Source: Thermodesulfobacteriota bacterium
Lineage (GTDB): Bacteria; Desulfobacterota; Anaeroferrophillalia; Anaeroferrophillales; Tharpellaceae
Assembly: GCA_024762675.1 (NCBI GenBank)
Contig: JANTGZ010000002.1
Coordinates: 1 to 63,117, forward strand
Direction: 5' to 3'
DNA: 63,117 nucleotides
In this document: piece by piece, positions 35,606-51,101 of the stretch
Numbering within the stretch: the stretch's first letter is position 1
How the letters are laid out: each line of letters opens with the position of its first letter
Program-made: the position numbers and the translations under genes
Notes under the pieces: model-generated
Database searches by the model: none
Told to the model about the DNA's origin: nothing
Seen by the model: the letters and a program-made list of their open reading frames with translations, nothing else

Positions 35606-38600
35606 CTATTTTAGAAAAGCTCCCCAGAGGTCATAAAGCAACTCGTTGCCGCCACCGGCCCCCTGTTCAACTGCAACATATTCACCCGCTTCATAGACTT
35701 TTATCAGAACGTAGCCGCCCTGATAACCAACTACTTCAGCTTCGCGATCAAACTTGTAGAAAGTATCATCCTCACCCATACTCCAGATCTCTGGTTCTGT
35801 TCCAGCAAATGGCAGCCGGAGAATTGAGCCGAGTTCGCATTCATGTGCGTACTCATACTGCAGAGGATGAGCGATTGCAAACCCTCGTCCTTCAAGATAA
35901 ACGCTTTCATCACTGCCAACCGTAAAGCCGCAGGCTTGAAGGTGGTTTTTAAGCTCGGCTGGGACATAAAAATACATTTTATCCATCCATGGGCCGTTAA
36001 CTACCTGTTTGATATATTCGGCATTTTGTTCCGAATGAGTCAACAGATTGGGGTCAATGTCTGGAATTTGATTGCCTATGACTGAACCTTCACCCGCCAT
36101 TTTAAAGAGCTCTTCAGCATGATGATGGCTTAATTTAAGAACCTCATCAGCCCTGGCACCCAGGAAACGCAACCCATTGGCTTCCATTGGTTTAAGATAG
36201 TCAATTTCACCATCGACGACAAACAAACCGTCGGGGTTTGCCATCTCCATCATGCCGCTATCATGGCTGTAGCGCATGAAGCGATTCTCTTCAGTAAACC
36301 ATGGTGGTGACCATGGCATAAACATAATATTTCGGTCGGTTACGCGGTGGGCTCCGGCCGAAGTTGCGGAATCACCATGACAATCATTACATGATTTTGA
36401 ACCTAAGGCCTTTTCCGCAGGCTTAATACCATGGCTGTCAGAGAAATAATGCGCAGCGATAAATAGTACCGGATGGGGATCACTCTCGCCTTCGGCCTTT
36501 AGTACGGTTGTTAAAGCAGCTTGTACAGCTCTGACATCCTCATCCCACCAGATATCGGGAAACATATCTCCGGTATGATCGAAGAGGACATAACCGCTAT
36601 CTTTCAAAACAACGCGTCCGATATTGGGGTTTTCGGCCCAGGTTGGATCGTTAGGTGGAATCATAGCCATTTCCATGGGTGAAACCACGCCCAATTGAAT
36701 TGGTCGTTTATATGTTTTTATAGCTGCATTGAGTTCCTTTACATAGAGAACCTTTGCCCCACCATATGGGAGATCCGACATGTCGGCGTCTGGTTGAGGG
36801 TTAACATCGACCCAGGTCATGACTGTAATCGGGTTCCCGATTACGACTTGGGGGTAGCCATTAATACCGCTGGCATAATATAAGGGTGGAAAGTTCAAGT
36901 TGGGTTGCTGCGGATCATAGTCGAGCGGCACACCCATTTGCTTGTAGCCTTCGTAGCTGACCTGGAGAAAATAGTTCCAGAAATCAAATTTAAAATTGGT
37001 CGGCATGCCATTGACTAAACGACCGGGATCAGCTTCACCGTCCATGTTGAAGTAATTGACCATCTGGGAGACAAAATCCATCGATTGGACTCCCTTACCA
37101 TCGGCGTCAATTTGCTGGCTGACCATGTTGAAATGAGGAATTCCGTAACCCGGGGAAGTACCGTAAACCGGTTGCAGTGCGTATGGAGGTCCAGGAAAGG
37201 CCATTCCCTTACCGTCACCGACAACCCCGGCGACCTGATCAGCAAGGACATTATAGCCCATCAGGTTGTCAAAATTGGTGTAGTATCCCAGCGTATCATC
37301 AAAGGTTCTAAAGCGCCAGGTTTTGCGATAAGGGGAATGGCAGGCTTGACAGGAGACTACGGCCAGGTGACGTCCGGTAGTTTCCCCAAAAGTCTCTTCA
37401 TGTTTAGCTATGGGGCTTGGTGCATTGGCATCTTCTCCAGCCAGGTGACAGCCTTCACAACTTTTGGGGCGGGGGTTGGCATCAAGATCATTACGAACCA
37501 TATGGGCCGTATCGACTCCTTTGAGAAAATTATGTTTATCTTCTTTGCTGCCGCTTGCGCGCAAATGGCAGGTACCGCAACCTATTTTCTGACTCGACAT
37601 ATGGACATCATAGCCCATTGCTTCAGGGTCGTCTGTAAAGTTAACGTAGTTGCCATTTTTTACCCAGTCCGCCGGCATGCCCAGCATATAGGTCCGGCCT
37701 CGGGTCCATTCACTGTTGCCATGATCCTTAGTCATGACATGGCACTGGCCGCAAACTTTGACCCATTTAGAACTGTTAATGTCGTTCTGGCCACCAAACA
37801 TTTCAGCAATGGGGATGGCACCATTACTGTCAAGGTCACTGGTGTTATAATAAGCTTTAGGTTGCCATTCATCACCGTCACGGTCAATCGTTATATATGT
37901 TGCAGGTGAGCCGTCATGGTCAAAATCAAGGCCCATGAGACCGGCTGTCGGCACCATATCAAAAAAGCTGGGTAAAAGATCGTGTAGCGTGGGGCTCACC
38001 TTGCCTTCTGGAATGGCACCTTCTTGAATATCTTTAATTACCAGGGAGAGATCAACCTGTCCGGTGTCGGGGTTGATATATGTAGTATCACCCTGCATGA
38101 ACAAGCCCATGGCGTATATGGAGCCACTGTATTCCTCACCGACCTTCCCAGTGTAGGGTATACCTTCCCCTTCAATTACACCGACTCGGATAAAATCACG
38201 CACAGAAGCATCACAGCTATCCCAGTTGCTATAGAACTTACCCGGCTCATAGGCTCGCAAACCGTAAGGCACCGGCAGAAACATATTACTGCCCGGCATA
38301 TTGAACTTAATCTGGTAAGCAAAAACAAAATCGTTGAACATAAAGCCCATCAGCATGTTCATGTCACCTTCTGACGGCATCAGGCCTTTGTCCTTGAAAT
38401 ATTGGAGAAAACCCGTAAAAAATTGTTCCAGAGCTGCTTGGGATGCCTGTAGACGACTCATCTCATCGGCAACACCATTGGGGTTGCCGCAATATTCCGC
38501 CCTCAACATACCCGTTGCCGGGTCCCAGATTTTAGGTACATTCTGGCCATACAGAGCGTAAGGCAGTGGAACGCCGCTGTCTTCAATCTGCTTAAGGCCA

Positions 38601-39634
38601 TCAACCCACATCTGCATCATTTCACCAACGATTTCCTTGGGTAGTTGGGCCATCGCCATAAATGGGGTTGGTCGACCCATGCGTTGGGGGCCATCGGTAT
38701 AATTCATGGCCGTGCTGTTTTCAAGGCCAACTTTGGTGGGCATGCCGAAAGAGATTTTTTCAATTTTCTGAGTCTGTGGGTTTCGATCAGCGAAAATCAT
38801 CATCCGTGGTCGAAAGGGTTGAACTTTAAGACCATCAGCAGCCTGGTAAGTATAACTGCTGTCGGGGTCGATATGGCAAAGTAGACAGTCGGCTTCCATG
38901 ACACCGGATTTACTCCAGTCATGGGGGCGGGGCTCGCCGATTAAGGCCATAGTTTCATCAATGGTCTCTGCACCATATAAGGCTTTGACGAGATCATTGG
39001 AGTCGTAGCCGTAGAAGTCACGGTCATAGGTGTGCAGAGGGGATAATGTTTCATCTGTGAAAGGAGTTACTGTGTTATCATCGTTGACAACTCCTTCAAC
39101 CGGGCCGCCGCCGGGATGGCAGGAGTAACATGTAGCCATATGGTCGGCGGTTCCGATATCAAAGAAATAGGGTTTTCCTTCAGATGTGAAAGAAGCATCC
39201 TTGCTGCCGCGAACCCCTTTTGCCGCCAACTGGCGGTAAGAGGGGGGTCACCATGCTCCAAACTGGCCCGGACTCAAAAGATGGCCATAGGCATGGGTAA
39301 GATATTTCTGCAGGTTATTATCTTTATTTTCACTGACCCAGGTATCGCTGGCGCCGCCATTAACTCCAGGGGTTGTCCCTTCGCGAAAATGATAGGCTTT
39401 AGTGATTGAGTTGTAATCATGACACTTGCCGCAGGTCTGTTTAGGACTGTAGGCGGGCCCCTGTTTGTAGATAGCACCGCTGGCAGCAGTCGTTGTATCG
39501 TTATCATTTAACTGGTCAATAATGCGGTTGCCTTGTGTGTCGTAAAGGACTACCGGGGGATGGGCTGCCGTCGCCAGTAAGGGGGTAAGGGCCAACAGTA
39601 AGGCTCCCAGGATAAGGGTTTTGACTTTTCTCAT
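35606..39634 (-). CDS. Very large secreted multihaem c-type cytochrome; one reading frame with a single in-frame UGA at 39250-39248
   Basis: ORF 39634-39248 has a signal peptide plus CGKCH. ORF 39229-35606 has 7 CXXCH motifs: CYSCH, CLLCH, CGQCH, CGTCH, CEGCH, CQACH and CNDCH. The two are in the same frame, separated only by TGA plus six sense codons (PPSYRQ). The downstream ORF has a TTG start, no Shine-Dalgarno sequence and no signal peptide. The alternative readings are two separate genes or a pseudogene. Confidence 0.55.
39214..39245 (-). promoter_or_regulatory. SECIS-like hairpin downstream of the in-frame UGA
   Basis: Minus strand: UGA CC CCCCUCUU A CCGCC AGUU GGCGG C AAAAGGGG. The upper stem CCGCC/GGCGG starts 11 nt after the UGA. 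The apical loop AGUU contains GU. The lower stem is CCCCUCUU/AAAAGGGG with one mismatch. Confidence 0.45.
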
Positions 39635-39698
39635 TGAACTACCTCCAAAGGATAGAGAAATATTTTAAAAGTTAAATAATTCGTTAGGTTTATTTTTG

Positions 39699-40598
39699 TT
39701 ATTTGCGTAAAATTATGCCTTTGTGGCATTGCATGCACTCTCCCGTTTCATGGCAGACGTTACAGCTGCGGAAATTACGTCGAGCGGCTTCTCCATGTCC
39801 ATTATCACGTTGATAGGAGATCCAATCACCACGGAAATGAGAGACCGGTTTCTGGTGTTTATGGCAATCGACGCAATAACCGGCTGAATGACAGGTGGCA
39901 CAGGTGCGGCGATCATGGGTCGCCTCAACCCCGTGACCGGTTGTTTTCCAGCCAAAGTTGTGATCCCTTGGCTTTTCAGTCTCGTGACATTTCTCGCAGA
40001 AAGCTTGGCGATTGGGATGGCAATAGCCACAAGAAGTTGAGAGGCGGCTGGCAAAGCCATGTTTTGTTTCCCAGTCCTGGTTATGGCTTTCAGGGGCTTG
40101 CTCGGCTCTGATTTCACTATGACAGGCTTCGCAATCGGTTGGTCCTTCCTGTTTTTTGTGACATTTTAGACAGAGTCCCATCTTCGGGCCGTTTTCCAGG
40201 CCGCGCTCCTTATTGAGCGATTGATGGCATGAGTAACAGGTAATATCACTGTGTACTTCATGATTGAAGATTAGGTCGGCAAAGCTCTTAGGTTTAACAC
40301 TTTTCTCAATCTCATAATCCTTGTCGGCGCTTTCCGGGGAATGGCAGAGAAGGCACTCATCAGAAGGTTCATCAAGGTTTATTTCGTGACATTCCTGGCA
40401 ATCTGCCATCGTGGCGGCGGCAAAATTCCCCTCAGCATCTTTTTGATGACATTGGTCGCAGGTAGCTTCCTGCTCCATTATATGGAAACGGTGACTGAAT
40501 TTAAGACCTACTGAAGTTTTACAGGCTCCGAGAACCAGAGCCCCAAGGGCGATTGCAGCAAGTCCGACCCAGAATAATTTTCTTTTTTGCTTACTCAT
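39699..40598 (-). CDS. Dodecahaem c-type cytochrome (periplasmic, possibly lipid-anchored)
   Basis: 12 CXXCH motifs in ~299 aa. N-terminus MSKQKRKLFWVGLAAIALGALVLGAC is a signal peptide with a possible lipobox. ATG 40598 is preferred to TTG 40667. Confidence 0.85.
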   Translation of the reverse strand: MSKQKRKLFWVGLAAIALGALVLGACKTSVGLKFSHRFHIMEQEATCDQCHQKDAEGNFAAATMADCQECHEINLDEPSDECLLCHSPESADKDYEIEKSVKPKSFADLIFNHEVHSDITCYSCHQSLNKERGLENGPKMGLCLKCHKKQEGPTDCEACHSEIRAEQAPESHNQDWETKHGFASRLSTSCGYCHPNRQAFCEKCHETEKPRDHNFGWKTTGHGVEATHDRRTCATCHSAGYCVDCHKHQKPVSHFRGDWISYQRDNGHGEAARRNFRSCNVCHETGECMQCHKGIILRK

Positions 40599-40650
40599 AG
40601 AAATAGCCTGTTTAGTAAGGTTGTTAGTAGCTTGAAGATCTCTTCCCGCA

Positions 40651-42048
40651 TTAGAAATTGAGGTCAAGGGTGATTGTTAGAGAGTTGATGTAGTCAACCC
40701 CGAGCTCATCTTCATAGAAATCATCTTGCGCGTATTCATAGGCGAATTCGATCCGTGAGTGGTCACAGAGTCGGTAGGCGACCGCTGCCCGATAGCTGGT
40801 TGAGGCTTCATCTTCGAGGAGGCTGTTGACATCTTCAGTTTTATGGTAGTAGCCGGCTTCAAGTTCCAATTTATGAAATAACTCCTGCTCCAGGTCAACA
40901 AACCAGGAGGTCGACTCAGCTTCGTAAAACTTATCCCGATCCTCCCACCATTGACTGATTCCGGCACTGCAACGAAATCCTTGCCAGCCGAAACATTGAT
41001 CGAGGTCAAAGCCCGCGGTAACCCTTTCAAAATCGGTGTTGTAGAGATTTTCGTCTTCACCATGAGCGAGACTGCGGTTAGTATAGCGACCGAATAGGGT
41101 AAGTCCCTTGATTATAGAGATTGGCTGGCTGATGCGAATGTCAAACTCAAGATAGCCTTGCTCCTGCATAAGATAGAGGCGGTTCATCTCAGAACTTAAG
41201 GCTTCATCCAGGGTATAACTGAAGTCAAAAAGGAAATCGGCATCCGAGGCGATGGCGTAACGGCGGTAGAATGAAAAGTCGAGAACCGTGCCGGTGGCAG
41301 CGATTGTGGTTTCGAGGCCGCTTTCGAAAAAACGGGTATGGTCATTGATAAAGGCGATGCGGCTGCGGAATTTCCAGAGGTCAGAAGGTTGCCAGTAGAT
41401 TGATGATTCCCATGAGGTCTCTTCAAAGATCACGGCATTTACATCAAGTGCCAGTCCCGGTAGGGGACGGACTCTTAAGTTGGCTCCGCCAACCCCGTCG
41501 GGTCCGAGGTCGCTGTAATGCTGGACCGCGAGGCCGCCAAAAACTTCGATTTCCATACCCATCCATTGAGGCCGGTCATAATGTGCCCAGATCCCGTCTA
41601 ACTGTACGGTTTCAGCCCCATAAGCATATTGGCGACCAGCTCTTATGGTAAGATCGTCAGTAAAAAGCCCAGTTTTTTCCAGGTAAGCGTAGTAGCATTC
41701 GAAATCCTGGCGATGACTACCACGGCTGTCGGTATAATCCTGGAAAATCGAGCCCTGACGAGTGCCGTCCAGATCTTTGGCATAGGTGGCCATCGAAAAG
41801 AAGGTCAGTCCTAAGCTTTGCCAGTTGGCATCAATCGCCAGGGTCTCAAAGATATCCTGATCCTGGTCCTCATCGACAGTCATAAAGCTTGCCGGACTGT
41901 CTGACCATTGCAGTCGATATTCTGTGGTACTTCTGATTGAGATATCGGCCCCGCCTAATTCCAGTGCAAATCCGGATGTTGTCAGCAGGCAACATCCCAA
42001 TATCAGCCCGGTCCCAAGCTTCAGTTTTCGCCATTGTAATCCAGCCAT
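40651..42048 (-). CDS. Outer-membrane beta-barrel (porin-like) protein of a porin-cytochrome cluster
   Basis: 465 aa. Signal peptide, many alternating Y/F/W-rich strands, and a C-terminal ...ITLDLNF. It is the first gene of the cytochrome operon. Confidence 0.65.
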   Translation of the reverse strand: MAGLQWRKLKLGTGLILGCCLLTTSGFALELGGADISIRSTTEYRLQWSDSPASFMTVDEDQDQDIFETLAIDANWQSLGLTFFSMATYAKDLDGTRQGSIFQDYTDSRGSHRQDFECYYAYLEKTGLFTDDLTIRAGRQYAYGAETVQLDGIWAHYDRPQWMGMEIEVFGGLAVQHYSDLGPDGVGGANLRVRPLPGLALDVNAVIFEETSWESSIYWQPSDLWKFRSRIAFINDHTRFFESGLETTIAATGTVLDFSFYRRYAIASDADFLFDFSYTLDEALSSEMNRLYLMQEQGYLEFDIRISQPISIIKGLTLFGRYTNRSLAHGEDENLYNTDFERVTAGFDLDQCFGWQGFRCSAGISQWWEDRDKFYEAESTSWFVDLEQELFHKLELEAGYYHKTEDVNSLLEDEASTSYRAAVAYRLCDHSRIEFAYEYAQDDFYEDELGVDYINSLTITLDLNF

Positions 42049-42383
42049 CTAAAATCCCTCTGTTGTAAGTTGACCAATGATCTTTTTTAATAATGGTCTA
42101 AAGGTTGCGGTATCTTAAGAAGCGAAAGATCCCTGTGGAATATTGGGAGCCACAAGAATTATTAAAGTTATAAACCTATAAGCCTATTACCTTATTAGGT
42201 TATATTAATCGACTTGTTTGGTCAAGCAAAACTATGGGAAAACCACGAGAAAGGGTATTCTACTTATATAAATATGGCCTTTAATGACGGTTGCCACCTA
42301 TATATGGTTTTTTTGTATTGTCGGGTAGGGTCAAAACTTAAGCAAACTTCAGAACGTAAAGTGAGAGATTAATGAACAAAAAA

Positions 42384-42413
42384 AGCACGTCCAACATTAA
42401 AGTTGGACGTGCT
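42384..42413. terminator. Bidirectional intrinsic terminator
   Basis: 12-bp perfect stem AGCACGTCCAAC / GTTGGACGTGCT with a 6-nt loop. An A7 run lies upstream and a T5 run downstream. It follows the 42443 gene on the minus strand. Confidence 0.75.
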
Positions 42414-42442
42414 TTTTGAAAAGTGTTGTGCGGGTTTTGTTT

Positions 42443-42868
42443 TTAGCGTTGCCCAACCGCAAGTGGGATGATAGTTGCGGAGTACTCTTCTTGTTGATCA
42501 AGCTCATGTAAAAGCTGATCTTTTAACTCTGGGCTCTCCTCAATCATGGAGGAAATTACGTCCATCTTCTCTTTGTTGCTCTCTAGTTTTTTCTTGCGGA
42601 AGTGGTCGACTGAACAGAGAGCTATGGAGACAAATACGAAAGATCCCCAAACTATGATTAAAGGGACAACCAGAATGTTGAGTGAGGGGATAAAGGCTGC
42701 TGGTATCGCCAGGATGCCGAAGAATTTGCCCATGACTAAACAGATGGCGCCAATCTTGGTCAATGTTGGAATCTTTTGGATGTTCTCCAGTATATCGGTT
42801 GAGTTGACGCTGTGGTGGGCGTAATTACGACTGTAAGTTCTGATTTGGCTGGGAGTCATGCTATTCAC
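42443..42868 (-). CDS. Small membrane protein (2 TM helices, acidic coiled C-tail)
   Basis: 141 aa. Hydrophobic segments IGAICLVMGKFFGILAIPAAFI and LVVPLIIVWGSFVFVSIALC. It has its own consensus promoter. The start could be GTG 42868 or ATG 42859. Confidence 0.5.
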   Translation of the reverse strand: MNSMTPSQIRTYSRNYAHHSVNSTDILENIQKIPTLTKIGAICLVMGKFFGILAIPAAFIPSLNILVVPLIIVWGSFVFVSIALCSVDHFRKKKLESNKEKMDVISSMIEESPELKDQLLHELDQQEEYSATIIPLAVGQR

Positions 42869-42905
42869 CGGTAAAGTTTGAATTTTAGTGGTAATTCTAC
42901 TCGAT

Positions 42906-42948
42906 TAACTAATGTATATATTATACATTAGTTATCTCAGATTGTCAA
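42906..42948 (-). promoter_or_regulatory. Consensus sigma70 promoter overlapped by a 13-bp perfect inverted repeat (operator-like)
   Basis: Minus strand: TTGACA (42948-42943), a 17-nt spacer, then TATAAT (42925-42920). The palindrome TAACTAATGTATA-TAT-TATACATTAGTTA (42906-42934) covers the spacer, the -10 and the likely transcription start. Confidence 0.65.
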
Positions 42949-43052
42949 GTATTTTGAATGGTTTTTATTAGTGAGAATCAAATGGGGTGTTTTTCAAAAA
43001 ACTAATTTGCGACACGTGTAAGGTTTTAATTTTTATTACTTTTTCACCCGAT

Positions 43053-43250
43053 TTAAGAGCCGGACACATTTTCTTCTTGTTTGATCTCTTCGGCCAAATA
43101 GTATTCGCTGGTCAGGGTGCGTTCAATGATTTCATTGCCGAGCAGGGTTTCCAGGACTTTTGTGACCTCCATGCATTTGCCACCTTCAAATCCTGCCAGT
43201 TGAAGGTTCACGGCGCCATCTGAGCCGATTGTTATATTGATTTTTTCCAT
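43053..43250 (-). CDS. DUF2997-like small protein
   Basis: 65 aa: MEKINITIGSDGAVNLQLAGFEGGKCMEVTKVLETLLG.... The pattern matches my memory of DUF2997; no profile search was run. Confidence 0.45.
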   Translation of the reverse strand: MEKINITIGSDGAVNLQLAGFEGGKCMEVTKVLETLLGNEIIERTLTSEYYLAEEIKQEENVSGS

Positions 43251-43330
43251 GATCTATTTATCTCCTGATAATTTATATATCAATAAGTATTAGATTTTAT
43301 CCCTTTTCACATAAGCTCGGATCTTTTTCT

Positions 43331-43708
43331 TTAAAGATCTCGGCTTAAGGTCATATTAATGGTGCCGGCCTTATTCTCCTCATCGGTGAGGAGAAAACCT
43401 TGTTGGGTCAAGGTATCCTTGACGACATTGTAGGCATAGCGTTGATTTAAAGTATCCATGAAGGTGGACTGGTCAACGTCCTGAATAGAGTCCCAGTCGG
43501 CAACCACATCATAAGTTTTTCCATTAAAGCGAAAACCGATATCGTAGCCGCTCTTAGTTGGGATGATAATGTCGGCTTTCTCTTTTTTCCAGAGCCAGCC
43601 TTTGGCTTTTAATTTGCCTTCCTGGTACTCCAGTTCCATATCACTGATCGTTTTTTTAAGAAAGACCTTGTCGGCAATTTTGCTTTTGATTTTGGTAAAG
43701 TGGGACAT
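43331..43708 (-). CDS. DUF1257 (Ycf35-like) small protein
   Basis: 125 aa with an N-terminal MSHFTKIKSKI... signature typical of DUF1257/Ycf35. Recognised from memory. Confidence 0.5.
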   Translation of the reverse strand: MSHFTKIKSKIADKVFLKKTISDMELEYQEGKLKAKGWLWKKEKADIIIPTKSGYDIGFRFNGKTYDVVADWDSIQDVDQSTFMDTLNQRYAYNVVKDTLTQQGFLLTDEENKAGTINMTLSRDL

Positions 43709-43741
43709 GGCAACTCTCCATTGTACAGGTTAAGCTGTTAG

Positions 43742-45235
43742 TTATAATTCACTATTGGCTTTGCGGGTTCGTTGGGCGGCCCAGGCTTTAAGGGCGTCGA
43801 TTTTCTCGCTCATCAAGCGAGAGATCGGAATGATCTCAGTGACACTGGCAAGGATATCTGCCTCGGTGAATTCACGTTGATTATCGTCAAAAGCGTTGAA
43901 CATGGCATCATAGATAATCTGTTCAATCTCGGCACCGCTATAATCTATTGTTGCATCCGCAAGTTTTTCAAGGTCGAACTGGCGAATGACGGGCCTGACT
44001 TTTTCCAACAACACTTTAAAGATCGCCTGCCGTTCTGAAGTTGAGGGCAGGTCAACAAAAAAGATTTCATCAAAGCGGCCTTTACGCATCAGCTCGGGAG
44101 GGAGTTGGGCAACATCGTTGCCGGTGGCTATTATAAAGACGGGTTTGGTTTTTTCCTGCATCCAGGTCAGAAAAGTGCCAAGAATCCGAGCTGATGTGCC
44201 GCCGTCGCCAGCCGAACCGGAACTGCCGGCAAAGGCTTTTTCTAGTTCATCGACCCATAGGATGCAGGGTGAAATGGTCTCCGCCAGGTGAATGGCCTGG
44301 CGCAGGTTCTGCTCCGACTCACCCAGCAGGCTACCGAAAACTTTGCCTAGATCCATACGCAACAGGGGCAGTTTCCAAAGTCCGGCGGTGGCTTTAGCGG
44401 TTAGGCTTTTGCCGGTTCCCTGAATGCCGATAATCAGAATCCCCTTGGGAGCCGGCAGGCCGTAATCTTTGGCTTTATGAGTAAATACCTGACTGCGTTT
44501 ACGCAACCAGGTCTTGAGGTTTTCAAGACCACCGATATCGTTAAGGCTCTCTTGGACTGGGAAAAACTCGAGTATTTCACCTTTTTTTATGATTCCACGT
44601 TTCTCTTGAAGAATGATTTCGATGGCGCGTTCGTCGATGGAGCCATGTGCGATGATGATCTTGGAAAAAAGGTTCTTGATATTGACAATTGAGAGCCCTA
44701 GGGTCGACTCAACGATCTTCTCTTTAAGTTGTGGGGTTGGGGGTTTGCCTTGAGCGGCACTGACGACGACGCTGTCGAGCTCTTTTTCAATCTCAGGGTA
44801 GCCCGGGAGTTCGAGCTCAATCTGGCAGATGTCTTCGCGCAACTCAACCGGCAGTGCGGAACTGGGTGTAGTCAGGATAATAGTCTTCTTGGTGAACTGG
44901 AGATCGTGGTTAAGGTTTCTTAAGGAACGTAAAATAATGCTCTCGCGGAAATGGAGGTGGAAATCCCGCAGGATAAAGATGGCATTACCGCCGAATTTGC
45001 TGATTTCTTTAAGGCAGTTTATAGGGTCGGGTCGATCCTTGTTCTTGATCCCGCCCATCTCGCCCTTGATTGGTTTAAAGCCGTCCCCCAGGTCCCATAT
45101 GATTATGCTTTTGTCTTTGAACAGAGGGGATTCGGCCATCATCGAGAGAAAACGGGATTCTTCGTAGGTGACCACATTGATCAGTGAGTGGTTGCTGCGG
45201 ATTGTGGTGTTGAAACGATCTAAAAAAGTCATCAC
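43742..45235 (-). CDS. Ycf46-type AAA+ ATPase
   Basis: 497 aa. N-domain SLINVVTYEESRF, Walker A GIQGTGKS, Walker B ILWVDELE, sensor-1 ATGN, and Arg-finger region MRKGRFDEIFFVDLP. Confidence 0.8.
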   Translation of the reverse strand: MMTFLDRFNTTIRSNHSLINVVTYEESRFLSMMAESPLFKDKSIIIWDLGDGFKPIKGEMGGIKNKDRPDPINCLKEISKFGGNAIFILRDFHLHFRESIILRSLRNLNHDLQFTKKTIILTTPSSALPVELREDICQIELELPGYPEIEKELDSVVVSAAQGKPPTPQLKEKIVESTLGLSIVNIKNLFSKIIIAHGSIDERAIEIILQEKRGIIKKGEILEFFPVQESLNDIGGLENLKTWLRKRSQVFTHKAKDYGLPAPKGILIIGIQGTGKSLTAKATAGLWKLPLLRMDLGKVFGSLLGESEQNLRQAIHLAETISPCILWVDELEKAFAGSSGSAGDGGTSARILGTFLTWMQEKTKPVFIIATGNDVAQLPPELMRKGRFDEIFFVDLPSTSERQAIFKVLLEKVRPVIRQFDLEKLADATIDYSGAEIEQIIYDAMFNAFDDNQREFTEADILASVTEIIPISRLMSEKIDALKAWAAQRTRKANSEL

Positions 45236-45288
45236 TCTCCTCTTGCCTGGGGTTTATTTCGAATAAATCTCCGGGAAACTTGTCAGCT

Positions 45289-45492
45289 TCAGCCGCACAA
45301 ATTATATGACATAGCCTTACATTTACTAACCAAATCGAGATTTCCGGTCAAGCTCAAAATCTGCTCTTCACCATTCTGGTCGAGACCCCAGGCACAGATT
45401 TCACCCTTTTCCGTAATTCGGATGTAAATTTGTGGCTCTTTTTTCGTAGTTTGGCTGGATCTTAAATCTGTTTTATGTGCCTGTTTATTCAT
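45289..45492 (-). CDS. Hypothetical 67-aa protein
   Basis: Co-directional ORF filling the gap between the Hsp70-like and AAA+ genes. Basic N-terminus, weak ribosome-binding site, no motif. Confidence 0.3.
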   Translation of the reverse strand: MNKQAHKTDLRSSQTTKKEPQIYIRITEKGEICAWGLDQNGEEQILSLTGNLDLVSKCKAMSYNLCG

Positions 45493-45541
45493 CCCGGCAT
45501 TCCAGATGGTATCGTACTGTTTTAAATTATAATGGCGGCCA

Positions 45542-47059
45542 TCATTCCAGGCGTACCGATTTTTTTCGTTTCCAGATAGTCTGATTTCGGCGCAGATCCT
45601 TTACCGTAATCAGCAGATCGCAGTTTAAGTTGATATCAAAAGTGATCTCCAGGCGTTGTTCGTTGTCTAAGGCCGGGGGGTCTAGAGAGATGATTTCCGG
45701 GCGCGCTTCATTGATGAACGATTGTTGCTCATCTCCGAGGTTCTCTTCCAATTGCATACGGCCTGTATCATCGACAACAATCTCTCGGTCACTGCTGCTT
45801 TCGGGACGGTCCATGCGGAAGATGTCGAGTTCAACTTCAAGTTGACCGGCAAAAAAACCGTTGGCAACGATGCTGGTAATGCCTTGTTGGGTCGGATAGG
45901 GAGTGCCTTTAGGAACGATGATGTCGTAACGGTAGCCATCACCTTTAGCCGTGCGGCTGCGGATCGCGTAATTGGCCTTGATTGTGGCTTGGATTCCGCC
46001 TTTTTTCAGGTAACGCAAGGCCCCTATCGGGATGGCCTCATGGGCTTTGTTGCTCAGGAGCTTGGGCCCGAAAAATTTCCTCATGATGTCGTTGTAATAG
46101 TGGGTTGGCAGGCTTAAGCCGCTGCCCAGAACATAGCCGACATTTTCATAGGTGACACCAAAGCCGGAAGCAAGATCAAAGAGGTCGCGTAAAAGAACTT
46201 TAAGTTCTCGGCCATAACCTTTTTGGTCGAGCATTTTATGGAGATCGCTACGCGAAAGACGAAGTTCCACCCCATCGAGCGTCTCCTGGTACTGCGGTTT
46301 CAGGTTTAGTTTACCCCTGATTTGCCGGGCCTTACTCATGTTTATAGGGATCTTATCGGTAAAGTAGTTCTGGATTACCTTGTCGATATCAGCTCCGCCA
46401 TAGTTTTTATGCATACTGCAGATAATTACACTCTGGAGTCTGGGTTCGCGATTACTTTCGACTATTTTGAGCAGGTAGAGATCAAAAGTCGTGTAGCCAA
46501 AATGAAGATAGATCAGGTGCTGGTTTATCTGGTTGGCAAGATCGTAAGCTAAAAGAGCGCATACCGCCTCATCGACAACCTTGAAATTGATCAGGCCGAT
46601 CCGCAGGCAGAACTCTTCGATTGTTGCAGCAAAAACCGAAAAGTTGAGGGGCTCTACGATGAAGACGATCATTGCCACCTGATCTTTACCGTAGAGTTCG
46701 TGGATGCGGTCGATGATATTGATCAGTAGGTCGGTGGCGGCCTGGAAGGTACTTATCTCCTGGTCACCGATGATCCGGGGTAGGTATTGCTTTTTGCCCA
46801 TATACTGTTTCATGTATTTGAAGGTTGCCGGGGAGTTAAACTTTTTTTGGCTGAAGACCTCCTGGCCGCAATAGATGCGGTCGGCATAGCAGATCATGGC
46901 GGGGACCAGATGGATTTTTTCCGGGCCCTTGGGTGTGTTCATCTCGACGGTTGTCGAAATCTCTCCGAGATGAACCGACTCAATGTGCCCGCTCTCCTCA
47001 TCCTGGCTGTAGATCTGCAGGTTGACATTGTTAAAGAAGATGGAGACTGTTTTAGCCAT
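45542..47059 (-). CDS. Hsp70/DnaK-fold paralogue lacking the helical lid and carrying degenerate phosphate-binding loops
   Basis: Collinear with DnaK by eye: VDEAVCALLAY ~ INEPTAAALAY; HFGYTTFD ~ DLGGGTFD; GGADIDKVIQNYF ~ GGEDFDSRLINYL; GSGLSLP ~ GGQTRMP; IVPKGTPYPT ~ IAKNTTIPT; ITFDINLNCDLLITVKD ~ VTFDIDADGILHVSAKD. The N-terminal GIDLGTT loop is replaced by SIFFNNV. Confidence 0.75.
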   Translation of the reverse strand: MAKTVSIFFNNVNLQIYSQDEESGHIESVHLGEISTTVEMNTPKGPEKIHLVPAMICYADRIYCGQEVFSQKKFNSPATFKYMKQYMGKKQYLPRIIGDQEISTFQAATDLLINIIDRIHELYGKDQVAMIVFIVEPLNFSVFAATIEEFCLRIGLINFKVVDEAVCALLAYDLANQINQHLIYLHFGYTTFDLYLLKIVESNREPRLQSVIICSMHKNYGGADIDKVIQNYFTDKIPINMSKARQIRGKLNLKPQYQETLDGVELRLSRSDLHKMLDQKGYGRELKVLLRDLFDLASGFGVTYENVGYVLGSGLSLPTHYYNDIMRKFFGPKLLSNKAHEAIPIGALRYLKKGGIQATIKANYAIRSRTAKGDGYRYDIIVPKGTPYPTQQGITSIVANGFFAGQLEVELDIFRMDRPESSSDREIVVDDTGRMQLEENLGDEQQSFINEARPEIISLDPPALDNEQRLEITFDINLNCDLLITVKDLRRNQTIWKRKKSVRLE

Positions 47060-49080
47060 CAGAGTTTCTTTACTTTGAAAATTTTCAGTTCCCGGGTTTG
47101 GGAGGCTTCATTTAAAACCTTAAGCTCTGTGCAGTTGCGCGTGATCTGGGCGATTCGGACAAGGATTCTTTGCCTTAATTCATCATAATGGGGTCGGCCT
47201 CGGATGAAGTCAATAATTATGTACAAGATCGGTAAGCTCTGAAAACTGTCGAGCTCATTTTTCTTGTCGAGCAGATGGTTGAGAGCGCTGTTGATGCTCT
47301 GGCGGAAGAAACCACTGTAACGGCGTGTTCGATGTACTACTATCGCAAAACAATCACTGCCGTCAACCTCGATTTCAGAGAGCAGGCGCATAACCAACAG
47401 CAGTGGGAAGCCTCGGCTGGCAGCAGTACCGGGGTTGCTATTGGGGCCGAGAACAAGTTCGACTAATTCTTTTGGCTGATTTCTGATGTCCGTAAAAAGT
47501 TCTTCATATGAAGGCAGGGTAGCTGTACTGACTTTAGTCATCAGGGTTTCAATAGTTAGGTTGGCGATTTCAGGGTGCTGCTCAAAGAACTCCGCCAAAG
47601 CTTCGTTCATGCGTTCTAGATCCTGGCCTTTGGTGAGGCGCTCTTTGATAGTCAGGGCGCGGCGTTCTTCACGGTCCTTGAGCAGGCCCAGCAACAGGGG
47701 GACATCCTCGCTCTTAAGCCATGGGGATAGAAGGTTTAAAAGGCTGTAGGAAAAAGACCAGTCGATGTCGTTTGTCAGGGCCAGCAGGTTTTGGCGGATT
47801 TTGGGACGATCGGCAAAACGGCACATGAAGAGGGCGATCTCCCGGTAGTGCGGTTTTAGAACCGGGATCTTTATTTTATCTAAAATGTAAGTCCATTTAT
47901 CTCCATGATCTAGTGTCGCTAAAGCGTTAAGCAACTCCGGGTAGAGCTCGATTTTTTCCGACCATTGGGCCAGATGGTTGGCGACTTCCCGGCTTTCACC
48001 AGGCCAGGGTGTTCCTGCCAGAGCTTGCAGAAGTAGCTTGAGTTCCTCTTTTTTGTTGGTTTTATTGAGCAGCTCGAGGAAGGCTTTCAAGGCCTGCGGG
48101 CTTCGCATTTCTCCAAGTGCTTCCAAGGCTTCGCGGCGTTCGCTAAGATTGCCTTGTCGGGCTCGATTCTGTAGTAATTCAAGGGCTTCCGGGTTTTGGC
48201 ATCCAGCCAGTTCAGAAAGGGCCGAGGTTCTTTTTTTGCGGCGCCAAGACTTGCCTGATTTAATAAGCCTTTTGCAGCCCTCCTCATCTCCGAGACGGGC
48301 CAGGGCTCCAGCGGCTGATGGGACGTCATCAAGTAGTTTGTGCAATCGTGGCCGGCAGTTTTCAAGTTTTAGACGGCCGGCGGCTCGAATCGCATACTCT
48401 TCGGCAAAAGTGTTGCTGGAGAGCAGGTTTAGAGTCAAATCAGCAACTATGCTCTCTTTTTCAGGGTTTAAGGATGGGCCGATGAAGTCTAAAAGTTCCG
48501 GTTTTTCTTTAAGGAGTGAAAGATCATTGTCAAGCAGGAGATCATTAAAGAAAGTTCGCGGATAAAGCGTCTTAAGAAGGGTGAGACCGGAAAGTCGCGG
48601 TTCACGCTCAGGGATGGCGCAGATTAAGGGCAGACTAAGATTTGGCGGAAAGATTCTGACGGCGGTTGCAGTGGCCGCATCTACTGCTTTATTACGTCTT
48701 AAAAGAGAGTGAAAATAGTCGAAAAAAGAGGCTTCCGAATGGTTGTTGATGAGTGGTTTTTTCAGGCGTTGAGTTTCGAGGTCACCGGTCTCCGGAGCAT
48801 CAACTCCGATCACCTCCAAGGCCAGCAGCAAGAAATGGTTGCTTCCTAAAAACCAAGCCGCCGTTAAGATCAGGTGGAGGTTTACATCACTGGCACCATT
48901 GAGACGTCCCGCCATCTCTCTGCACAAGGCGCGAGCCTGTTTATGTTCACCCGAGGAGCAGGCAAAATCGCGTAACTCCAGTTGGGTTTGGTGAAAAATT
49001 TCAAGAACCCGCCAGCGCAACTCCCAGTTTTCCGCGAGCAGGTCATTGATAATGTTGGATGAGGGAACCAGTTGTCTCAT
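47059..49080 (-). CDS. HEAT/PBS-lyase-repeat protein (673 aa)
   Basis: All-helical sequence with repeats such as AAGALARLGDEEGCKRLIKS, SALSELAGCQNPEALELLQ and RREALEALGEMRSPQALKAFLELL. There is a 1-nt stop/start overlap (TGATG) with the Hsp70-like gene. Confidence 0.6.
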   Translation of the reverse strand: MRQLVPSSNIINDLLAENWELRWRVLEIFHQTQLELRDFACSSGEHKQARALCREMAGRLNGASDVNLHLILTAAWFLGSNHFLLLALEVIGVDAPETGDLETQRLKKPLINNHSEASFFDYFHSLLRRNKAVDAATATAVRIFPPNLSLPLICAIPEREPRLSGLTLLKTLYPRTFFNDLLLDNDLSLLKEKPELLDFIGPSLNPEKESIVADLTLNLLSSNTFAEEYAIRAAGRLKLENCRPRLHKLLDDVPSAAGALARLGDEEGCKRLIKSGKSWRRKKRTSALSELAGCQNPEALELLQNRARQGNLSERREALEALGEMRSPQALKAFLELLNKTNKKEELKLLLQALAGTPWPGESREVANHLAQWSEKIELYPELLNALATLDHGDKWTYILDKIKIPVLKPHYREIALFMCRFADRPKIRQNLLALTNDIDWSFSYSLLNLLSPWLKSEDVPLLLGLLKDREERRALTIKERLTKGQDLERMNEALAEFFEQHPEIANLTIETLMTKVSTATLPSYEELFTDIRNQPKELVELVLGPNSNPGTAASRGFPLLLVMRLLSEIEVDGSDCFAIVVHRTRRYSGFFRQSINSALNHLLDKKNELDSFQSLPILYIIIDFIRGRPHYDELRQRILVRIAQITRNCTELKVLNEASQTRELKIFKVKKL

Positions 49081-49431
49081 TTTTGCAGATATTTACAAAT
49101 AAAAAACACCATCTTTGTAATAATGATCCATTTCAGCCTATATCCAGTTTTGGACATATTGAAGCAGGATTTATTGGCGATTGTCAATATTGATGGGTTC
49201 TGCGAGAAAGCTGTTTATGGTTGTGTGTCAAAGCCGTTAGTTGAGAGCTCTTGTTTTTTGTTTTACTAAAATAATTGGGTTGGTATTTTAAATGTTTTTT
49301 GTTATGGTTTGGGGGTCTGGATCAGTATGCACTGACAAGCTTTTCACTTCTATAGTAATCATACACTAAGAGGTGATCTGTAACAACTGTAAACTTTATA
49401 CTTATTTTTTTAATAAGGGATTGTACCGTTA

Positions 49432-49791
49432 ATGGGGAATGAAGTCATGGAATTTGACCGGGGTTTTTTGGCCCATCTTTTGACAGATGACTTGGTGGCG
49501 ATGGGTTTTGACCTAGACGATGGGAGTGAGGTTGTCGAGGCTTTTTGTGAAGCGCTTGAAGAGTACCTTCCTGAATTAAGAAGCGCAGTGGCTGCTGCTA
49601 AGATTCAGGAGGTTGGTTTTTTTGCTCACGCTCTGAAAGGGACCTTCAATAATTTTAGTGTTCCTCAATTTGTTTGTTTGGCGGAACTGTTTAAAGATAT
49701 GGAAGAAGAAGCTGGAGGTGACGGTAGTTTTGAGATTATCACTGCTTTGATGGGTCAGATTGAGAGTGAGTTGAAGGTCTGCATTAAGTGA
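49432..49791 (+). CDS. Stand-alone HPt (histidine phosphotransfer) domain protein
   Basis: 119 aa. The FFAHALKGTFNNF motif (H-x-x-KG) sits in a four-helix-bundle-sized protein. Confidence 0.7.
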   Translation: MGNEVMEFDRGFLAHLLTDDLVAMGFDLDDGSEVVEAFCEALEEYLPELRSAVAAAKIQEVGFFAHALKGTFNNFSVPQFVCLAELFKDMEEEAGGDGSFEIITALMGQIESELKVCIK

Positions 49792-49796
49792 CTGAA

Positions 49797-51101
49797 TCAA
49801 TAAACCGAAGCCGCCGGCCATAGAATTAATTGAGGGAAGATTTCGAGCAGGATTATGGTGATGATGTAGGTTGGCAGGAAATAGGCGATACCTTTGAATA
49901 TAGTAGTCAGCGGAATGTCTTCGGCAATGCCGGCGACGACATAGGCGTTGACGCCAACCGGTGGAGTGATAGCGCCCATGGTCGTTACTATGGTAATCAA
50001 AACCCCGAACCAGATCGGGTCGAAGTTGAGCTTTACGGCCAAAGGACAGAAAATTGGGATTGTGATCAGCAGCAGGCCCAGAGCGTCCATGATGGCGCCG
50101 CCGATGATAAAGACCAGGATGATGATCCACAGGATAAAAACCGGTGCTACCGGCAGGGAGGCGGCCCATTCGGCAATTGCGTAAGGCAACCTGGTTAAAG
50201 CCAGAAAACGGCCGAAGATGACGGCGCCGGCAATAATAATGACAATAAAGCTTGAGATTTTCAGGGTATCATTTATTGCCGTAACGAATTTTTCATAAGA
50301 GAGAGAGCGACGAAAAAGAGTTAAAATCAGGGCGCAGAATGAACCAACGGCCCCGGCCTCACTAGGAGTGAAGAAGCCGACAAAGAGCCCGCCCATGACC
50401 AGGCCGAAGAGGAGCAGCATCTCGAAAGAGCCTTTAAGCGAGAAGATTTTTTCTTTAAAGGTGGTTTTCTCACCTGGTGGCCCCCAGTCGGGGTGACGAC
50501 GGCAGATGACAATGATAGTTATAATTAGAAGGGCTGCGAGTATCAGGCCGGGAATGATACTGCCGAAAAAAAGTTTGGCGATCGATTGTCCTGTGTAGAT
50601 TCCGTAAACAACCAGGACAATGCTCGGCGGGATGACAACGCCCAGAGTCGACCCGGCTGCTATTGAACCGGTAATCAGGGTTGGGTTGTAGCCATATTTT
50701 CGCATTGAAGGCAGGGCCACCGAGGTCATGGTGGCGGCGGTGGCCGTGTTGGAGCCGCTGATTGCGGCAAAACCGGCACAGGCAGCGACCGTTGCCATCG
50801 CCAGCCCTCCGCGAGTCGCCCCCAGCCAGGCATAGGCACAGCTGTAGAGTCGGTTGTTGACATTGCTGTGAAAACAGATATGACCCATAAAGATAAAGAG
50901 TGGGATAATGGTTAGACCATAGGAGGAGAAGGTTGTCCAGAGGTCATTGCCGATCAGGGCCAGGGCGGCATCTAAAGAGATCAGCCAGGCGACTCCGGCA
51001 AAACCGGTGAGGGCCATCGCAAAGCCGACCGGAATCTGGAGCAGCAGCATGCCTGCCATCATTAAAAAGAGACCAATGATGCCGACGGTTTCAGGACTCA
51101 T
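49797..51101 (-). CDS. dctM: TRAP transporter large permease (DctM family)
   Basis: 434 aa and ~12 TM helices. Overlaps the dctQ-like gene by 4 nt. Confidence 0.85.
   Translation of the reverse strand: MSPETVGIIGLFLMMAGMLLLQIPVGFAMALTGFAGVAWLISLDAALALIGNDLWTTFSSYGLTIIPLFIFMGHICFHSNVNNRLYSCAYAWLGATRGGLAMATVAACAGFAAISGSNTATAATMTSVALPSMRKYGYNPTLITGSIAAGSTLGVVIPPSIVLVVYGIYTGQSIAKLFFGSIIPGLILAALLIITIIVICRRHPDWGPPGEKTTFKEKIFSLKGSFEMLLLFGLVMGGLFVGFFTPSEAGAVGSFCALILTLFRRSLSYEKFVTAINDTLKISSFIVIIIAGAVIFGRFLALTRLPYAIAEWAASLPVAPVFILWIIILVFIIGGAIMDALGLLLITIPIFCPLAVKLNFDPIWFGVLITIVTTMGAITPPVGVNAYVVAGIAEDIPLTTIFKGIAYFLPTYIITIILLEIFPQLILWPAASVY

Follow-up and report, generated by a model that had tools for sequence, protein, structure and literature searches.

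A stretch of 63,117 nucleotides from a Thermodesulfobacteriota bacterium (contig JANTGZ010000002.1 of assembly GCA_024762675.1; this whole stretch is referred to as the window) carries six minus-strand genes at positions 43053–49080. They encode a HEAT-repeat protein, a lid-less paralogue of Hsp70, a 67-residue orphan protein, a Ycf46-type AAA+ ATPase, and members of the DUF1257 (Ycf35) and DUF2997 families. The locus raises the question of whether these genes constitute one module and, if they do, what the module is for. The original prediction, made from the letters of the window, proposed that the products may form a protein-remodelling or surveillance machine with two chaperone-class ATPases, serving either a stress response or defence. 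The analyses described below led us to regard the locus as very probably a derived, lineage-specific member of a widespread and conserved multi-gene module. The view of the locus as a single conserved module is thus retained, and those of two ATPases and of a defence function are not.

Conservation of the gene linkage

All six open reading frames (ORFs) were found where they had been predicted, in the same direction and separated by gaps of -1, 49, 53, 33 and 80 nt in the order from the HEAT gene to the DUF2997 gene. The first of these is the predicted TGATG overlap, in which the stop codon of the HEAT gene and the start codon of the Hsp70-like gene share one base. In the clade to which the locus belongs, the HEAT gene is translationally coupled to the Hsp70-like gene. 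This clade is deltaproteobacterial, and the loci of relatives are labelled L001–L146. In L001–L004, where the Hsp70-like protein is 54–57% identical to that of the window, and in L139 (81%), the order HEAT, Hsp70-like, small protein, AAA+, DUF1257, DUF2997 is retained, and the flanking genes are unrelated to those of the locus. At a much larger distance, an Hsp70-like protein of 24% identity in the actinomycete Dactylosporangium is still accompanied by DUF1257, DUF2997, and AAA+ genes.

The distribution of the family was examined by scanning one genome per GTDB species with 12 of the closer Hsp70-like sequences as the query. At least 573 confirmed loci (species genomes) from about ten phyla were found, including Armatimonadota, Chloroflexota, Planctomycetota, Verrucomicrobiota, Cyanobacteria, Thermodesulfobacteriota, Acidobacteriota, Chlorobi-type bacteria, and Methanolinea. 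Eighty loci were retained and annotated using purpose-built hidden Markov models (HMMs), and those extending for 4 kb or more to either side of the Hsp70-like gene were counted as well-flanked. The Hsp70-like gene recurs together with the AAA+, DUF1257, and DUF2997 genes (the trio) in eight groups: seven bacterial phyla (Chloroflexota, Planctomycetota, Verrucomicrobiota, Armatimonadota, Cyanobacteria, Actinomycetota, and Thermodesulfobacteriota) and archaea. All 14 well-flanked loci of the closer Hsp70-like subfamily possess DUF1257 and DUF2997, and 13 possess the Ycf46-type AAA+ gene; radical-SAM and WD40 genes are each present in 8 of the 14. In the distant, mostly cyanobacterial subfamily, part of the trio lies nearby in 8 of 26 well-flanked loci. 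A reverse check starting from AAA+ homologs of 44–54% identity gave a clustered set of Hsp70-like, DUF1257, and DUF2997 genes on each of the six contigs sampled. Loss of the linkage outside this genome had been set beforehand as a result that would overturn the prediction; instead, the linkage recurs across phyla.

These loci define a canonical form of the cluster, whose usual order is AAA+, a repeat protein of about 880 residues, Hsp70-like, DUF1257, DUF2997, a radical-SAM protein (about 190 residues), and a WD40 protein. The 880-residue protein, encoded just upstream of the Hsp70-like gene, combines HEAT-like N-terminal repeats with a C-terminal beta-propeller. The radical-SAM protein (Pfam Fer4_12, 2.4e-27), present in 19 related loci, displays the NrdG/PFL-activase signature NGPGxRxVxWxQGCxxxCPGCFNPxTH together with SGGEP. 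When all ORFs were clustered, 23 of the 52 loci examined proved to have a gene for a GrpE-like protein immediately upstream of Hsp70-like (Pfam GrpE, 3.7e-11 for the protein of Pseudanabaena), and in the cyanobacterial loci L076, L078, and L079 the AAA+, DUF1257, DUF2997, GrpE, and Hsp70-like genes stand in one row. The invariant core of the cluster consists of the Ycf46-type AAA+ ATPase, the DUF2997–DUF1257 pair, and the dedicated lid-less Hsp70. Compared with the canonical form, the clade of the locus has a HEAT protein in place of WD40, has gained the 67-residue protein and a small protein with two transmembrane (TM) helices, and has a decayed nucleotide-binding site in its Hsp70. No gene for a glycyl-radical-activase-like radical-SAM protein, recognised by CxxxCxxC within NGPGxRxxxWxQGCxxxCxxCxN, was found in the window or the clade, and no GrpE-like gene was found in the clade.

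Several individual loci depart from this scheme. In Dactylosporangium (L005 and L006, 4905–7452), two proteins of 454 and 322 residues with no Pfam match are encoded between the AAA+ and Hsp70-like genes, in the slot occupied elsewhere by HEAT or WD40 proteins, and the opposite strand carries a NUDIX gene. One cyanobacterial metagenome-assembled genome, JBFLZA01, has two paralogous copies of the lid-less Hsp70 (L058 and L077). The plasmid pPg_01 of Pseudanabaena galeata (L145, 4864–13021) bears a complete cluster that includes its own GrpE; DUF1257 and DUF2997 are separated there by inserted genes for an AAA_21/AbiEii-like ATPase and a 167-residue protein, and the cluster is surrounded by RelE/ParE and PIN toxin–antitoxin genes.

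Domain composition of the encoded proteins

Searches with sequence profiles and predicted structures upheld the family assignments of the original prediction, namely HEAT/PBS-lyase repeats, an Hsp70 with no lid, an AAA+ ATPase with intact Walker A, Walker B, and arginine-finger motifs, and DUF1257/Ycf35-like and DUF2997-like small proteins. They also agreed with its statement that the module has no nuclease, protease, toxin, or transporter, as no such model in Pfam, NCBIfam, or PADLOC matched any component.

The Hsp70-like protein gave a weak but significant match to Pfam HSP70 (PF00012, 4e-6), and its best NCBIfam matches were HscA and DnaK, both far under the cut-offs. A profile of the family aligned to residues 1–449 of DnaK (2e-55). 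An AlphaFold2 (AF2) model built from an alignment of 38 sequences (predicted local distance difference test score, pLDDT, 89; predicted template modelling score, pTM, 0.81) matched DnaK, lid-truncated BiP, and Ssz1 in Foldseek with a probability of 1.0 over about 540 columns (1e-28 for DnaK/BiP), the Ssz1 structures 6sr6, 5mb9, and 7x3k being among the matches. In the model, a two-lobed, actin-like nucleotide-binding domain is followed by a linker and a beta-sandwich substrate-binding domain. The helical lid is absent: the chain stops at the last strand of the sandwich (residue 505), and DSSP assigned no helix after residue 353. A profile search of 1.84 billion representative proteins (E < 1e-30), with clustering at 50% identity, yielded 256 clusters of such proteins, mostly of 505–550 residues, which constitute a distinct lid-less family. 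A phage origin of the family was rejected, since IMG/VR contains no member. Neither a J-domain protein nor GrpE is encoded in the unit of the locus, and across all loci a single J-domain ORF was observed, 6 kb away and on the opposite strand.

The family consensus retains the canonical ATP-binding motifs of Hsp70 (AIDFGTSNT, DExTAAALGY, VFDFGGGTLD, and VGGSSLIP). At the same positions the protein of the locus has SIFFNNVNL, DEAVCALLAY, YLHFGYTTFD, and LGSGLSLPTH, and therefore lacks the phosphate-1 (DxGTT), phosphate-2 (DxGGGT), and adenosine (GGxxxxP) motifs for Mg-ATP; the changes include D8F, G10N, D186H, and the replacement of GG with YT. The decay extends to the whole clade. The phosphate-1 aspartate at position 8, conserved in 98% of the family, is phenylalanine in all 36 clade members; the phosphate-2 aspartate at position 186 (95–98% in the family) is replaced with histidine, asparagine, leucine, isoleucine, or methionine among them; and their glycine-rich loops carry bulky residues. 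The rest of the protein is well conserved within the clade. The decay of the motifs throughout the clade, together with conservation of the remainder, suggests that the Hsp70-like protein is probably a pseudo-ATPase whose fold and peptide-binding domain have been preserved. Accordingly, the claim of two chaperone-class ATPase folds does not survive as stated: with the motifs of the Hsp70-like protein lost and those of the AAA+ protein intact, probably no more than one of the two is active.

The assignment of HEAT repeats holds for the central part of the 673-residue protein. The matches to Pfam HEAT_2 (PF13646; 5e-12, 46.3 bits against a cut-off of 27.7) and HEAT_PBS are limited to residues 282–354, where tandem hairpins of the HEAT/PBS type occur, and alphaRep structures in the PDB matched residues 216–351; about 500 residues outside the matched repeats have no domain match. 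Orthologs hold the same position in L001–L004 and L139. In L140 (72% identity), a mere C-terminal remnant of the HEAT gene is found upstream of the Hsp70-like gene (9643–10001), reflecting either natural decay or an assembly artefact. The pairing of HEAT and Hsp70 proteins, noted at the locus by the original prediction, recurs elsewhere. In the Anaerolineae loci L053 and L070, HEAT genes for 374–387 residues directly follow the Hsp70-like gene, and L144, from a second deltaproteobacterial clade, combines AAA+, DUF1257, DUF2997, HEAT (584 residues), Hsp70-like, and small 2-TM proteins in a different order. Moreover, the long proteins of the Hsp70-like family carry extra C-terminal domains by fusion: HEAT repeats in P0225, P0229, P0235, P0253, and P0272, and WD40 propellers in P0230 and P0298. 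In these fusions the repeat domain takes the place of the missing lid. The adjacencies and fusions are good indirect evidence that the HEAT and Hsp70-like proteins work as one functional unit. Orthology between the HEAT protein of the locus and either the HEAT/WD40 protein of the canonical cluster or the HEAT protein of L144 was rejected, as the similarity is at the level of repeats (hhalign probability 2–3%, blastp E >= 0.1). The idea that its C-terminus is a fused remnant of GrpE was also discarded, because the GrpE-like HMM matched no protein of the window.

The AAA+ protein (Pfam AAA, 2e-28, and AAA_lid_3) has the single C-terminal classical AAA module of a Ycf46-type ATPase; the module resembles the D2 module of p97/Cdc48 (1.5e-53 over residues 228–445). 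Walker A (GTGKS), Walker B (DELEKA), the arginine fingers (RKGRFD), and sensor-1 are conserved across 120 homologs, and the pore loop of the family, FGSLVGESE, lacks the usual aromatic residue. Homologs from various phyla, including cyanobacteria such as Nodosilinea, align over 97–100% of the length with 44–54% identity. The N-terminal stretch of about 225 residues is specific to the family; its internal similarity to the AAA lid region suggests that it may be a degenerate first AAA module. An HMM of this N-domain matched AAA+ genes adjoining DUF1257 in Nostocales loci, and the domain may correspond over its full length to that of cyanobacterial and plastid Ycf46. The predicted gene itself stands, and its start is probably ATG at 45232 rather than GTG at 45235, giving a protein of 496 instead of 497 residues, because homologs have 496 residues and the Shine–Dalgarno spacing fits ATG better.

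The two small conserved proteins score far above the gathering cut-offs of Pfam: 1e-23 and 83.9 bits against 22.2 for DUF1257 (PF06868), and 2e-13 and 50.5 bits against 24.1 for DUF2997 (PF11211). The family alignment of DUF1257 displays an invariant N-terminal MSHFT and the equally invariant motifs YDIGF, ADxW, QxYA, and QGF, with aspartate, glutamine, and tyrosine among the invariant residues beside the N-terminal MSH. The MSH motif has been noted independently in plastid Ycf35, which a 2026 preprint calls functionally uncharacterised (PMC13060386). The AF2 model of DUF1257 (pLDDT 92) matched no structure in the PDB (best E 0.18) or BFVD, and PDB sequence searches gave nothing significant for DUF1257 or DUF2997. 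DUF2997 has the motif G..C...T...E..LG with one invariant cysteine (43 sequences), and its gene lies 80 nt downstream of DUF1257 at the locus. In all 49 IMG/VR contigs carrying DUF1257 (L090–L138), DUF2997 is immediately upstream of it or overlaps it, and none of these contigs has an AAA+ or Hsp70-like gene. This adjacency and the presence of both in all 14 well-flanked loci mark DUF2997 and DUF1257 as an obligate pair. Overlapping genes for the pair also occur in the T4-like cyanomyophages P-SSM2 (PSSM2_178/179; L141:3802–4381) and P-SSM5. In these phages and in marine viral contigs the two may represent auxiliary metabolic genes or serve as a decoy. DUF1257 was found in 3 of 72,556 plasmid records. 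One of its members, on plasmid pTRESU01 of Treponema succinifaciens (L146:7001–7408; Pfam 5.8e-14), has an unexpected context for the family, inside a contractile-tail cluster resembling an extracellular contractile injection system (eCIS), where it has the sheath and tube genes on one side and the genes for Tail_P2_I and baseplate-V on the other.

Orthologs of the 67-residue protein are encoded between Hsp70-like and AAA+ in L001, L003, L139, and L140, and the protein is confined to the clade. It has the conserved core I.I...G.I.AWGL..EE.IL..TGN and an invariant C-terminal LCG, and scans of Pfam, PADLOC, and NCBIfam gave no family match. A relationship to DUF2997 as a paralogue was rejected (hhalign probability 5.9% over 13 columns).

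Transcription signals and surroundings of the locus

The features of the locus are listed in Table 1. To the six predicted genes, which all stand, a seventh conserved gene has to be added in the clade, that of the small membrane protein TM141. It is homologous to one or two genes downstream of DUF2997 in L001–L004 and is absent from L139; small 2-TM proteins unrelated to TM141 follow the Hsp70-like gene in L007 and L144. The perfect promoter-like site before the TM141 gene suggests that this gene may be transcribed independently of the six upstream genes. The terminator-like hairpin, which lies 26 nt downstream of its stop codon, has the features of a strong terminator and would close the seven-gene unit. 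The promoter-like site before the HEAT gene is no stronger than chance matches in shuffled sequence. No Rfam match was found within 41500–50000. The GC content falls to 0.41 over 42001–44000, which contains the small genes and intergenic regions, compared with about 0.48–0.50 in neighbouring parts of the window.

Table 1. Features of the locus and of the region adjoining it (positions in the window)
Feature	Position	Strand	Basis
HEAT protein, 673 residues, alpha-solenoid with central HEAT/PBS-type repeats	47059..49080	-	ORF, Pfam
Lid-less Hsp70 paralogue, 505 residues, probable pseudo-ATPase	45542..47059	-	Pfam, AF2, Foldseek
Orphan protein, 67 residues, clade-specific	45289..45492	-	ORF and orthologs
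Ycf46-type AAA+ ATPase, likely start ATG 45232	43742..45235	-	Pfam, homologs
DUF1257/Ycf35-family protein, 125 residues	43331..43708	-	Pfam, alignment
DUF2997 protein, 65 residues	43053..43250	-	Pfam, conservation
Small membrane protein TM141, 141 residues, 2 predicted TM helices and charged tail	42443..42868	-	ORF, homologs
Sigma-70 promoter-like site, TTGACA-17-TATAAT, 12/12 consensus match	42920..42948	-	DUF2997/TM141 intergenic region
Intrinsic terminator-like hairpin, 16-bp stem, 7 GC pairs, T-run	42380..42417	-	sequence
Weak promoter-like site, 9/12 match, upstream of HEAT gene	49358..49386	-	consensus match

The genes that flank the locus in the window encode multihaem cytochromes of the MtrC/F-like kind, a TRAP transporter, and an Hpt protein. 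The cytochrome and Hpt genes had been offered as an accessory-type context; they are not conserved neighbours in relatives and were given no weight. The cytochrome cluster (35606–42048, minus strand) encodes multihaem proteins of 1207 and 322 residues with MtrC/MtrF-like domains and a 465-residue protein with no Pfam match, possibly an outer-membrane partner of the cytochromes. It looks like an extracellular electron-transfer module.

Function and relation to known systems

The composition of the cluster points to an AAA+-driven protein-remodelling complex, a model to which, taken as a whole, we give about an even chance. An AAA+ hexamer would be the sole motor. In the clade of the locus, the HEAT protein and the pseudo-Hsp70 would form a static adaptor or holdase, in which the beta-sandwich domain may hold a peptide stretch from a client or partner protein, comparable to the action of Ssz1, an ATPase-inactive, non-hydrolysing Hsp70 that likewise has no lid, in the ribosome-associated complex (RAC). 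The DUF2997–DUF1257 heterodimer would be the core cofactor or client on which the AAA+ protein acts. In canonical clusters, the Hsp70 clamp would be tethered to the solenoid or propeller scaffold and cycle with ATP, often with a GrpE of its own. The likeliest task of the module would be the remodelling or quality control of proteins in connection with stress, phage defence being less likely. According to a preprint (10.1101/2025.07.21.665879), severe oxidative stress, darkness, and (p)ppGpp switch on a three-gene ycf46 operon of Synechococcus elongatus, which agrees with the statement in the original prediction that Ycf46 occurs in cyanobacterial stress operons. The signals reported for cyanobacterial ycf46 are redox, darkness, and starvation. 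In red-algal plastids, ycf35 and ycf46 are kept or lost together (PMC5940233). Carriage of the DUF2997–DUF1257 pair by P-SSM2 and P-SSM5, the rarity of DUF1257 in plasmid records, and the PADLOC results given below also speak for a role in stress physiology. The neighbours of the clusters are housekeeping genes, and genes for AhpC, desulfoferrodoxin, and flavodoxin lie near L001, L002, and L007.

Several points weigh against this model. Threading of a substrate by the AAA+ protein is not assured, because its pore loop (SLVGESE) lacks the usual aromatic residue. The evidence for physical association of the products is indirect, consisting of co-location and fusions, and the roles given to DUF1257 and DUF2997 (client or adaptor) and to the 67-residue and 2-TM proteins are guesses. 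The link to stress is drawn from cyanobacteria, not from the organism of the locus. In the distant cyanobacterial subfamily, no gene of the trio lies near roughly two thirds of the Hsp70-like genes (18 of 26 well-flanked loci). To the same side belong the variability of the repeat partners, the enrichment in lineages that are filamentous or multicellular, and two unusual genomic contexts, which are described below with the conflict hypothesis. The cyanobacterial copies without the trio represent a second context for the family.

A chance juxtaposition of unrelated genes, or of mis-called ORFs, might have been considered from the promoter-like sites inside the block, which are no commoner than in shuffled sequence; its probability is very close to nil. 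The gene order is held at 54–81% identity despite unrelated flanks, the linkage recurs across phyla, fusion proteins exist, and two genes overlap by 1 nt, so that the neighbourhood data effectively refute it. A conflict system against phages or other mobile elements is a more serious candidate, though an unlikely one. The AAA+–Hsp70 chaperone pair would then gate HEAT/WD40 sensor or effector modules, and the small 2-TM or radical-SAM proteins would be the effectors, in analogy to the MoxR–vWA and GTPase–Hsp70 systems of Kaur et al. (2020). Consistent with this idea, the HEAT/WD40 partners vary, swap between lineages, and become fused to the NTPase, a theme described in PMC7159879; filamentous Chloroflexota, cyanobacteria, Planctomycetota, and an actinomycete are well represented among the carriers; flanks differ even among close relatives; one locus adjoins type I restriction–modification genes and RadC; and the Pseudanabaena plasmid copy, with its inserted AbiEii-like ATPase, lies amid toxin–antitoxin genes. 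The phage-borne DUF2997–DUF1257 could be decoys, and the Hsp70-like protein of a canonical cluster weakly matched PDC-M61B of PADLOC (28.8 bits). However, no recognisable effector (nuclease, protease, TIR, or pore-former) was seen in any variant scanned. PADLOC runs on the locus and one canonical cluster returned, apart from that PDC-M61B match, nothing but generic AAA similarity (IetA, 96 bits for the AAA+ protein of the locus), and in NCBIfam the resemblance to IetA again goes no further than the generic AAA domain (IteA, 87 bits with the cut-off at 510), with no IetS protease; assignment to a known defence system was rejected on these grounds. Furthermore, ycf46 and ycf35 are kept in plastid genomes and streamlined picocyanobacteria, the Anaerolineae copies stay in stable synteny with genes for glmS, AFOR, and MFS, the cluster is nearly absent from plasmids, and the Hsp70-like gene is absent from IMG/VR. 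The PADLOC results, the housekeeping contexts, and the plastid retention thus leave the defence option of the original prediction unsupported.

Handling of a metal or an Fe–S/redox cofactor by the small pair, which overlaps with the remodelling model, seems rather improbable. In this case DUF2997–DUF1257 would bind a centre through the cysteine and the N-terminal Ser-His, in the manner of Grx–BolA, and the Hsp70-like protein (in an HscA-like role) and the AAA+ protein would load, extract, or repair it, the client being a ferredoxin or the NrdG-like protein. The invariant cysteine of DUF2997 and the invariant MSH (PMC13060386 for MSH), Asp, Gln, and Tyr of DUF1257 fit such a role, as do a DUF2997–ycf35–fed7 (ferredoxin) cluster in cyanobacteria (PMC4284462), the NrdG/PFL-activase-like [4Fe-4S] protein of the canonical cluster, the rank of HscA as best NCBIfam match (far below cut-off), the plastid co-loss with ycf34, grx, and pbsA (PMC5940233), and the AhpC, desulfoferrodoxin, and flavodoxin neighbours. 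This support is circumstantial. One cysteine and one histidine per heterodimer are a thin set of ligands, the cluster of the locus has no Fe–S protein, the loci revealed neither an IscU- or SufU-like scaffold nor, apart from the remote J-domain ORF mentioned above, a J-protein, and the HscA match reflects general similarity among Hsp70 proteins.

A bolder reading, which we consider quite doubtful at present, is that the Ycf46–DUF1257–DUF2997–Hsp70-like cluster encodes an ancient, unrecognised machine of several subunits and of a separate type, distributed over bacteria, archaea, and plastids, with the pair also in cyanophages, in which a scaffold-tethered Hsp70/GrpE and a Cdc48-like AAA+ act on a heterodimer of novel fold with a metal or radical centre. 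Such a centre is proposed because of the invariant N-terminal Ser-His and cysteine and the NrdG-like activase in the full version. If this is correct, the clade of the locus would be a natural variant with an ATPase-dead Hsp70, and ycf35 and ycf46 would gain a biochemical role.

Whichever role applies, ycf46 and ycf35 have been conserved cyanobacterial and plastid ORFs of unexplained function for decades, and the cluster supplies testable partners and natural variants for them. It defines a distinct bacterial Hsp70 family that apparently works without a J-protein encoded nearby. In addition, the clade of the locus is a clean evolutionary experiment, in which the nucleotide site of Hsp70 has decayed and the fold, the HEAT partner, and the AAA+ protein have been kept; this combination suggests a scaffold or holdase role for which ATP turnover by the Hsp70 is not required. 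In the literature that we searched on DUF1257 and DUF2997, a search of limited reach, this composition is provisionally undescribed.

The closest known counterparts are Ycf46 and Ycf35 of cyanobacteria and red-lineage plastids, as the DUF1257 and DUF2997 proteins of the locus are full-length members of the same families and the AAA+ protein appears to be one as well. The organism of the locus differs from those hosts in being a non-phototrophic deltaproteobacterium, and the literature consulted on Ycf46 and Ycf35 treats them as isolated ORFs or a three-gene stress operon; no link to a dedicated Hsp70, GrpE, HEAT/WD40, or radical-SAM protein was found there. The Hsp70-like protein resembles Ssz1 of RAC, a lid-less Hsp70 whose substrate-binding domain holds a segment of its partner as a pseudo-substrate and which acts as a fixed, non-cycling subunit. 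Ssz1 still binds ATP, whereas the motifs of the protein of the locus are destroyed; moreover, the locus has a HEAT partner instead of a J-protein (zuotin), and there is no specific sequence relationship. The DnaK–ClpB (Hsp70–Hsp104) disaggregase likewise pairs an Hsp70-type substrate binder with an AAA+ unfoldase. In contrast to ClpB, the AAA+ protein of the locus has one Cdc48-D2-like module, a probably inactive N-domain, and no M-domain, and the Hsp70 of the cluster lacks the lid (and, at the locus, the ATPase motifs), both being encoded in one operon with small obligate partners.

The NTPase–chaperone conflict systems of multicellular prokaryotes, in which Hsp70 is sometimes accompanied by GrpE and repeat proteins (Kaur et al., 2020; PMC7159879), comprise the MoxR–vWA ternary, DO-GTPase/tubulin/Hsp70, and GAP1-N2 with Hsp70 and GrpE systems, and share with the cluster the theme of HEAT, WD40, or TPR partners. 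They differ from it in their MoxR, vWA, GTPase, tubulin, and effector-associated domains; models of the first four matched none of the components of the locus or of the proteins scanned from L005, L009, L016, L053, L070, and L145, and neither Ycf46 nor DUF1257 is mentioned in that paper. In IetAS, finally, the likeness consists of the match of the PADLOC IetA models to the AAA module. It is limited to the generic AAA domain, and the locus, having no IetS-like serine protease, falls outside IetAS.

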